Below, piece after piece: positions 46,014 to 46,547 of a stretch of 64,000 nucleotides of DNA. Positions within the stretch are counted from its first letter, which is position 1; each line of letters starts with the position of its first letter. Location: positions 96,720,001 through 96,784,000 of the forward strand of contig OX597818.1 in assembly GCA_951406725.2 (NCBI GenBank). The letters run 5' to 3'. This stretch comes from Octopus vulgaris (Eukaryota). The notes under the pieces were generated by a model. That model worked only from the letters and a program-made list of their open reading frames with translations, made no database searches and had not been told where the DNA came from. A program made the translations under genes and the position numbers.

Positions 46014-46048
46014 GTTTCTGACGAAGAGCTCCGCTCGAAACGTTAAAC
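46014..46048 (+). ncRNA. Minimal type-I hammerhead ribozyme motif at the start of a short repeat (to about 46153)
   Basis: GTTT-CTGACGA-A-GAGC(TCC)GCTC-GAAA-CG-TT-AAAC. Perfect core, 4-bp stem II, palindromic AACGTT, 4-bp stem I. Confidence 0.75.
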
Positions 46049-46280
46049 CCTCCTTCTTTCCTTCCTTCCTGAGCGTCCAATAATACTATATTTGTTCCAC
46101 GTCCTCGCGTTGTTGTGTTTTCTCTTTGTGTTTTCATGTTTGGATTAACTATAGCTATAAGTGCACTTATATAGAATATTGTTACTGATACAATTATATT
46201 CAATTCTAATTCTCATTAAAGATCTTTCCCATTAACTTATTAATCATTGTGATTAGTTTATAACAACAACCTTTCTCCAT

Positions 46281-46331
46281 CTATTGACTCATTGGAGTTT
46301 CAAGACCTCCCCAGCCTCATCATCAGACTGG
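46281..46331 (-). ncRNA. Type-I hammerhead ribozyme motif with full stem III and GUC site (stem I imperfect)
   Basis: Minus strand: CCAGT-CTGATGA-T-GAGGC(TGGGGAG)GTCTT-GAA-ACTC(CAAT)GAGT-C-AATAG. Confidence 0.7.
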
Positions 46332-46506
46332 CATCGTGATCGCATTCTTTTTCAATGGTCTCAACGAGCATGGCAAACTAGCTGATCTTTCGCACTTAAA
46401 TTTGTTAGCTTCTGAGCTTTGGAGGTGAAACATAACAAGAGCAGGAAAATATCATGTACATTATTTACATTAGTCGGAGTGGTGTCCGCTTCTTGATTGT
46501 TGCTTT

Positions 46507-46547
46507 CACTATGTTTCGGGTGTGCACGCACTAGCCTTCTTCAGGTG
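46507..46547 (-). ncRNA. Minimal hammerhead-like motif
   Basis: Minus strand: CAC-CTGAAGA-AGGCTAGTGCGTGCACACCC-GAAA-CA-TA-GTG. Core intact, stem II irregular, 3-bp stem I. Confidence 0.5.

Follow-up and report, generated by a model that had tools for sequence, protein, structure and literature searches.

Truncated copies of three dispersed hammerhead repeat families within 530 bp of the Octopus vulgaris genome: a probable product of separate insertions

Overview

Three hammerhead ribozyme motifs lie within 530 bp of the Octopus vulgaris genome, and we are confident in reading this segment as truncated copies of three dispersed repeat families, all of which carry a minimal hammerhead of type I; the copies likely arrived by three independent retrotranspositions, after which motifs 2 and 3 decayed and the ensemble was left, in all likelihood, without a joint function today. 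The motifs belong to three separate families and stand at three levels of divergence. The locus is a fresh instance of an ordinary feature of animal genomes, a transposon graveyard. It was found in a stretch of 64,000 nt (positions 96,720,001-96,784,000 of contig OX597818.1, hereafter the window) of a 2.8-Gb, microsatellite-rich genome. Each family would have been inserted by target-primed reverse transcription of Penelope-like elements (PLEs), starting from a fixed 3' end and subject to 5' truncation, and the order of insertion, judged by divergence, would run from family 3 as the oldest through family 2 to family 1 as the youngest. Families 2 and 3 would have depended on PLEs, and motifs 2 and 3 would be inactive after their decay. 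The region is also present in contigs of three other organisms at ~98.6% identity, so the arrangement is older than their split.

Detection of the motifs and their genomic background

The CUGANGA..GAAA cores begin at +46018, -46544 and -46326 and their stems are mutually unrelated, as the first-pass annotation of this stretch had it. A strict hammerhead descriptor gave two matches in the window compared to a mean of 0.1 over 40 shuffles, so the motifs are not noise. The Infernal-type check with the Hammerhead_1 model that had been suggested returned no match in the window: the Rfam scan of 46005-46640 contained no hammerhead match at E≤10 and one chance match, the Rfam scan of the region gave just microsatellite-driven miRNA matches among the matches listed (150 of 226), and a genome-wide Hammerhead_1 search listed six matches among 73 scored candidates, none of them in the window. 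Such a lack of Rfam hammerhead scores is expected, because the motifs are minimal variants. A loose descriptor, which fits all three motifs, had seven matches in 600 kb of sampled DNA versus 0-1 in shuffles. Under a uniform model this density corresponds to ~30,000 matches per genome and ~0.6 triples within 530 bp by chance, an estimate based on seven events that extends from roughly 0.04 to 5 triples across the Poisson interval.

It is conceivable, if rather doubtful, that the clustering is not pure chance and that PLE-type endonucleases prefer TA-rich or existing PLE sequence, which would have attracted later elements to this place; the parts would still be three separate fossils. PLEs tend to insert into or beside existing PLE copies, according to the available text of PMC6765202, that of PMC8557442 reports a preference of PLE clades for (TA)n targets, and family 1 was found within ~450 bp of another hammerhead repeat at L007, L091 and L117. 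Against such targeting, no enrichment was seen when loci were counted: family 1 occurred in 1/28 family 2 loci, 1/29 family 3 loci and 0/36 further family 2 loci, versus about two expected per 87 kb. Three independent retrotranspositions remain the preferred reading.

Literature searches gave no description of families 1-3, which may already be named in repeat databases or supplements, and the short broken frames yielded nothing useful from a protein-database search or an Atlas look-up. The locus is flanked by a very common ~240-nt SINE-like repeat (46677-46915 on the plus strand, 45248-45448 and 57601-58371) with many copies in the window, including one 3 x 250-nt tandem. Fragments of LINE reverse transcriptase and mariner transposase were seen at window positions 15912-16307 (+) and 20322-20690 (-). 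Among further hammerheads, one family whose stem II carries a very long insert and which forms inverted pairs was noted at L068, L069 and L072, short canonical-looking motifs at L067, L070 and L071, and a family with a closed stem III at L064.

Motif 1 and a Penelope-like terminal repeat

The youngest fragment, family 1, spans 46010..46153 on the plus strand, adjoins a (TA)-rich tract and scores 169 bits against a profile built without the window copy. Matches to 46010-46153 at 96-100% identity were found at 39 other places (40 scored of 424 candidates), and 600 kb of evenly picked genomic DNA contained 14 occurrences in 9 of 60 stretches. The repeat is ~205 nt long and terminates in (TA)n; the window copy lacks the 5' part. 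Motif 1 (46014..46048, plus strand) is a minimal type-I hammerhead with a predicted cut after 46044 and is intact relative to its family. It is composed of stem I GUUU/AAAC, an extra A before a 4-bp stem II and a palindromic stem III, and thus carries the minimal PLE features of an extra base between positions 9 and 10.1, a G10.1-C11.1 pair and a palindromic stem III.

A C-terminal GIY-YIG remnant in the same orientation lies upstream of longer family 1 copies. Further loci linked to family 1 contain elements that appear intact, whose frames of 884-1061 aa include reverse transcriptase (RT) motifs, a CX4CxxC linker and GIY-YIG, at Pfam scores below the cut-offs (RVT_1 E 0.002, GIY-YIG E 0.015). 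In five of six long loci, related direct repeats ~6.2 kb apart flank these frames on both sides, and family 1 proper lies downstream of a GIY-YIG match on the same strand in 6/30 loci. As its repeats flank RT and GIY-YIG frames, family 1 is the pseudo-LTR of such an element, and the window copy is its 5'-truncated 3' end; the link to PLE terminal repeats that had been made at first reading was borne out for this family. The linker, as described in the available text of PMC8557442, suggests a PLE of the Neptune or Nematis type. The ribozyme of the intact PLE repeats is the same as motif 1 through the core, except for a C at position 4.

The loci L261-L266 (e.g. L262:1693-4719, plus strand) hold young, apparently intact PLEs with frames of ~1008 aa and near-identical pseudo-LTRs, and four aligned repeats there have C rather than U at core position 4. 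Another PLE is represented within the window itself by a broken 3' part with a C-terminal GIY-YIG (22033-22864, plus strand), which has at least 150 relatives in the genome. This fragment was considered as a parent of families 1-3 and rejected for all three; no family hammerhead was found beside 30 copies of it.

Single minimal motifs did not cleave and dimers cleaved at a low level in the experiments described in the available text of PMC4209133. Motif 1 would be active just as a dimer with a like ribozyme, a partner that motifs 2 and 3 could not supply.

Motif 3 and the register of its cleavage site

The oldest fragment, family 3, is a very old 5'-truncated piece of a minimal-hammerhead repeat at 46178..46331 on the minus strand, best supported at 46331-46210. 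It scores 56 bits (E 6.5e-17) against a profile of the 29 other copies from which the window copy was left out, and a profile of the downstream flank only, in which the search pattern has no part, also recovers it at 18 bits (E 1.4e-4). Motif 3 (46281..46331, minus strand) has its core at 46326-46320, stem II at 46318-46314/46306-46302 and GAAA at 46301-46298. Word-based and near-exact searches returned the window alone, as if motif 3 were a unique ribozyme; this was overturned by a core and stem II pattern with up to two mismatches, which gave 61 matches versus none in the reversed control. Thirty loci were analysed; of the 29 other copies, 11 could be aligned with the window copy, at 65-75% identity over stretches of 55-118 nt. 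Inverted partners of family 3 were seen at L080, L092, L100 and L104.

On its aligned copies, family 3 is a minimal hammerhead. After GAAAC comes GTT, or ATT as its decay product, and then (A/G)ATG, which pairs with CAT(C/T). The three bases after GAAAC in the 29 relatives are ATT in 10, GTT in 5, GTC in 3 and others in the rest, and U16.1 is retained in 22/29. In the window the cleavage triplet position (46296-46294) reads UCC, a triplet (TCC) present in 0/29 relatives; U16.1 is lost, and with it, at the level of the sequence, the cleavage triplet of the family. Eight of the 29 copies (e.g. L082-L084, L091, L094) have an A at 11.1 facing G10.1, which is not accounted for by CpG decay and is possibly a subfamily variant. 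At 46156-46171, a perfect 16-nt palindrome lies between the tail-to-tail 3' ends of the family 1 and family 3 fragments.

The first-pass annotation had credited motif 3 with a full 4-bp stem III and a canonical GUC site. These can be drawn, but not in the register of the family: the GUU/AUU site reads UCC here, so the 4-bp stem III with GUC (ending at 46286) is an off-register pairing, built from bases that in family 3 are the cut site, the stem I arm and the variable flank. The fold is strongly disfavoured: its modelled free energy is +1.4 kcal/mol, compared to -19.4 kcal/mol for the minimum free energy (MFE) structure, with a stem II probability of 0.00 both locally and in a 441-nt context. 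When this stem III was used as a search pattern, it gave five matches versus two in controls, with unshared flanks, and was discarded.

It is very improbable that motif 3 is instead a co-opted fossil that lost its dimer-type site, acquired a new, closed stem III and a GUC site and now works as a monomer within some host transcript. Four Watson-Crick pairs and the GUC can be drawn, and a motif-3-like fold is rare, appearing in 1 of 20,000 local shuffles under a descriptor that was fitted post hoc. The core and stem II, however, come with the family, so only three new pairs need explaining. In the same register, stem I is reduced to one pair beside the core with mismatches beyond, and G10.1 faces U. 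Folding predictions sequester the core in a 7-bp hairpin and place the ribozyme fold ~21 kcal/mol above the MFE. Motif 3 is unchanged in the three other organisms, but these are too close to reveal constraint: they differ by only ~1.3%, so less than one change is expected in the motif and the lack of substitutions is uninformative. The preferred reading of motif 3 is that of a decayed copy, and its lesson is that decayed minimal hammerheads can pass for a fuller ribozyme when read in a shifted register, so that cut sites should be called only with family alignments at hand.

Motif 2 and its window copy

Family 2 is represented at 46439..46624 (minus strand) by a truncated copy of a circularly permuted repeat of ~300 nt, which scores 119 bits against the whole-unit profile and 136 bits in another profile search. 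Forty-eight other matches were found at 73-87% identity (40 scored of 702 candidates). The window copy begins at an A-box-like head (about 46618-46608) and has lost most of the B box to a 22-nt deletion. Motif 2 (46507..46547, minus strand) is a decayed minimal hammerhead with its core at 46544-46538, stem I CAC/GUG and a predicted ancestral cut after 46510. The decay suspected in the first-pass annotation was evident here as well as in the UCC triplet of motif 3: just two basal pairs of stem II are kept, and the palindromic CG has decayed to CA. In 30 rows of the family alignment, the four bases after GAAA are CATA in 11, TGTA in 9, CGTA in 5, TATA in 2 and other in 3. As a reading of these rows, this is the pattern of CpG decay from CGTA, with CATA in the window copy. 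The hammerhead fold of motif 2 lies 6.5 kcal/mol above the MFE and is disfavoured by the model.

The interval between motifs 2 and 3

The annotation had proposed that two non-identical ribozymes of one element, motifs 2 and 3, excise an RNA of about 224 nt. It is extremely improbable that they cut one minus-strand transcript to release a 224-nt RNA, which would then circularise and move by retrotransposition as a chimeric retrozyme. Both motifs do point the same way, and the two proposed cuts lie 224 nt apart (46509 to 46286), inside the 150-450 bp range of metazoan retrozymes given in the available text of PMC7229834. The interval, however, is made of the 3' part of the family 2 copy, a 107-nt spacer (46332..46438) and the 5' part of the family 3 copy. 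The spacer has no other match in the genome and no significant score to the family 3 upstream profile. The two families differ in age, and their pairing was absent from all other family loci examined: family 3 occurred in 0/28 and 0/36 family 2 loci (two pairs of which overlap), and family 2 in 0/29 family 3 loci. The genome searches recovered relatives of families 2 and 3 separately, and no joint element at the loci examined.

The predicted RNA would also fail to rebuild a ribozyme. A circle requires that stem I be restored at its junction, but there the stem I arms CCAGU and GUGAA would form just two G-U pairs. A double hammerhead requires stem I arms that match; those of motifs 2 and 3 are unrelated, which rules out a dimer, and both ribozymes are decayed and modelled to misfold. 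The region is partly covered, at the low depth of 2-3 and without a back-joint, by contigs of three runs whose RNA status is a guess; such coverage is silent on expression either way. In run X4, a single contig runs through both proposed cuts without a break, and no back-joint was listed; this argues weakly against excision, as it comes from contigs of guessed RNA status. The interval is best read as the juxtaposition of two old fragments that likely inserted independently.

Family 2 as a mobile element

The annotation had further raised the possibility of a non-autonomous ribozyme retroelement. This idea does not apply to the interval between motifs 2 and 3 but fits family 2 alone, whose ~300-nt unit lies between like ribozymes. 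Family 2 copies run upstream into sequence that also follows the 3' end of the family, the unit profile is terminally redundant at ~300 nt, and at five distinct loci like ribozymes follow one another on one strand at a distance of 244-307 nt. No ORF was found in the unit, nor do the tandems offer room for one. Matches to A and B boxes lie ~100 nt upstream of the ribozyme in 21/29 copies compared to 0.1% of shuffles, with at most one mismatch to the consensus allowed per box. The Rfam tRNA model gave no match in any of the three heads tested, one of which came from a sister family, and ARAGORN at a lowered threshold produced output too noisy to use.

Family 2 copies share a common 3' end and vary at the 5' end, with abutting inverted partners in 11 of the 28 loci of the first sample. 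A fixed 3' end, 5' truncation and inverted partners are the insertion pattern of PLEs (PMC8557442, available text). Searches by tblastn with two PLE ORF queries in 3-kb loci detected neither RT nor endonuclease remnants next to family 2 or 3, so the PLE link of these families rests on architecture; family 3 may be too old for such a match or belong to a different clade. Minimal hammerheads are present in the majority of both families, and the window copies depart from it. The family 2 ribozyme had no Hammerhead_1 match; it is of the minimal PLE type and not a canonical one with loop 1-loop 2 contacts.

By analogy with known systems, family 2 is probably a circular-RNA mini-element moved by PLEs. 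A more specific version, to which we give about even credence, is a non-coding retroelement of ~300 nt in which a minimal hammerhead of the PLE type follows a Pol III-type promoter; its RNA would be cut to monomers, closed into circles and copied by a Penelope-like RT over more than one turn. The circular RNA, its Pol III transcription and the dependence on PLEs are all elements that we infer. PLEs have been proposed as candidate movers of metazoan retrozymes, and the enzyme that moves them is stated as open, in the available text of PMC7229834; family 2 is consistent with that proposal. If the model is true, the permutation, the fixed 3' end, which does not coincide with the cut site, and the inverted partners would be genomic evidence for the mobilisation of retrozyme- or SINE-type RNA circles by PLEs. 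Since a repeat of retrozyme size with putative promoter boxes and PLE signatures exists beside apparently intact young PLEs, trans-mobilisation is directly testable, and the family 2 result could outweigh the locus itself in importance.

A sister family of family 2 is abundant (6 matches per 600 kb), has a better-preserved minimal hammerhead and is usually preceded by an (AAT)n tract. It was seen at L109:2218-2329, L117:7503-7600, L130, L156, L157, L112, L242 and L003:820-924, with an A/B-box-like head before the ribozyme in L003, L117 and L242, and offers a better-preserved test case for PLE mobilisation.

Comparison with known systems

Circular permutation, A/B boxes and PLE-like inverted, 5'-truncated copies give family 2 a resemblance to the Schistosoma SINE/retrozyme. 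As far as the available text of PMC6765202 goes, the SINE-like hammerhead repeats of Schistosoma have a promoter followed by a hammerhead, the layout that the A- and B-box matches would give family 2. Family 2 resembles these repeats and the non-LTR retrozymes (PMC7229834, available text) in its ~300-nt unit: this is repeated head to tail, falls within 150-450 nt, contains a type-I hammerhead and lacks an ORF. The Pol III-type boxes lie just upstream of its ribozyme and would therefore be at the 3' end of the cut monomer. Unlike the Schistosoma repeats and retrozymes, family 2 has a minimal hammerhead of the PLE type instead of a canonical one, and it forms short partial tandems and inverted pairs of old, decayed copies rather than long arrays. 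The 224-nt interval between motifs 2 and 3 is not a unit of the metazoan retrozyme kind, as it is no tandem bounded by like hammerheads and joins two families.

Among the EN+ PLEs of the Neptune/Nematis type (PMC8557442), the intact young subfamily with C at core position 4 is related to the window copy of family 1 without being its exact parent. With the minimal hammerheads of PLE pseudo-LTRs, as presented in the available text of PMC4209133, the motifs have in common a type-I topology, a short stem I, an unpaired base before stem II, the G10.1-C11.1 pair, palindromic positions 15.2-16.2 and a prevalence of solo truncated copies. Dual motifs 100-700 bp apart on opposite strands are already reported there. 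Opposite-strand pairs within 700 bp are thus common to both systems, whereas the present locus differs in the stacking of three unrelated families, two of them as decayed copies.
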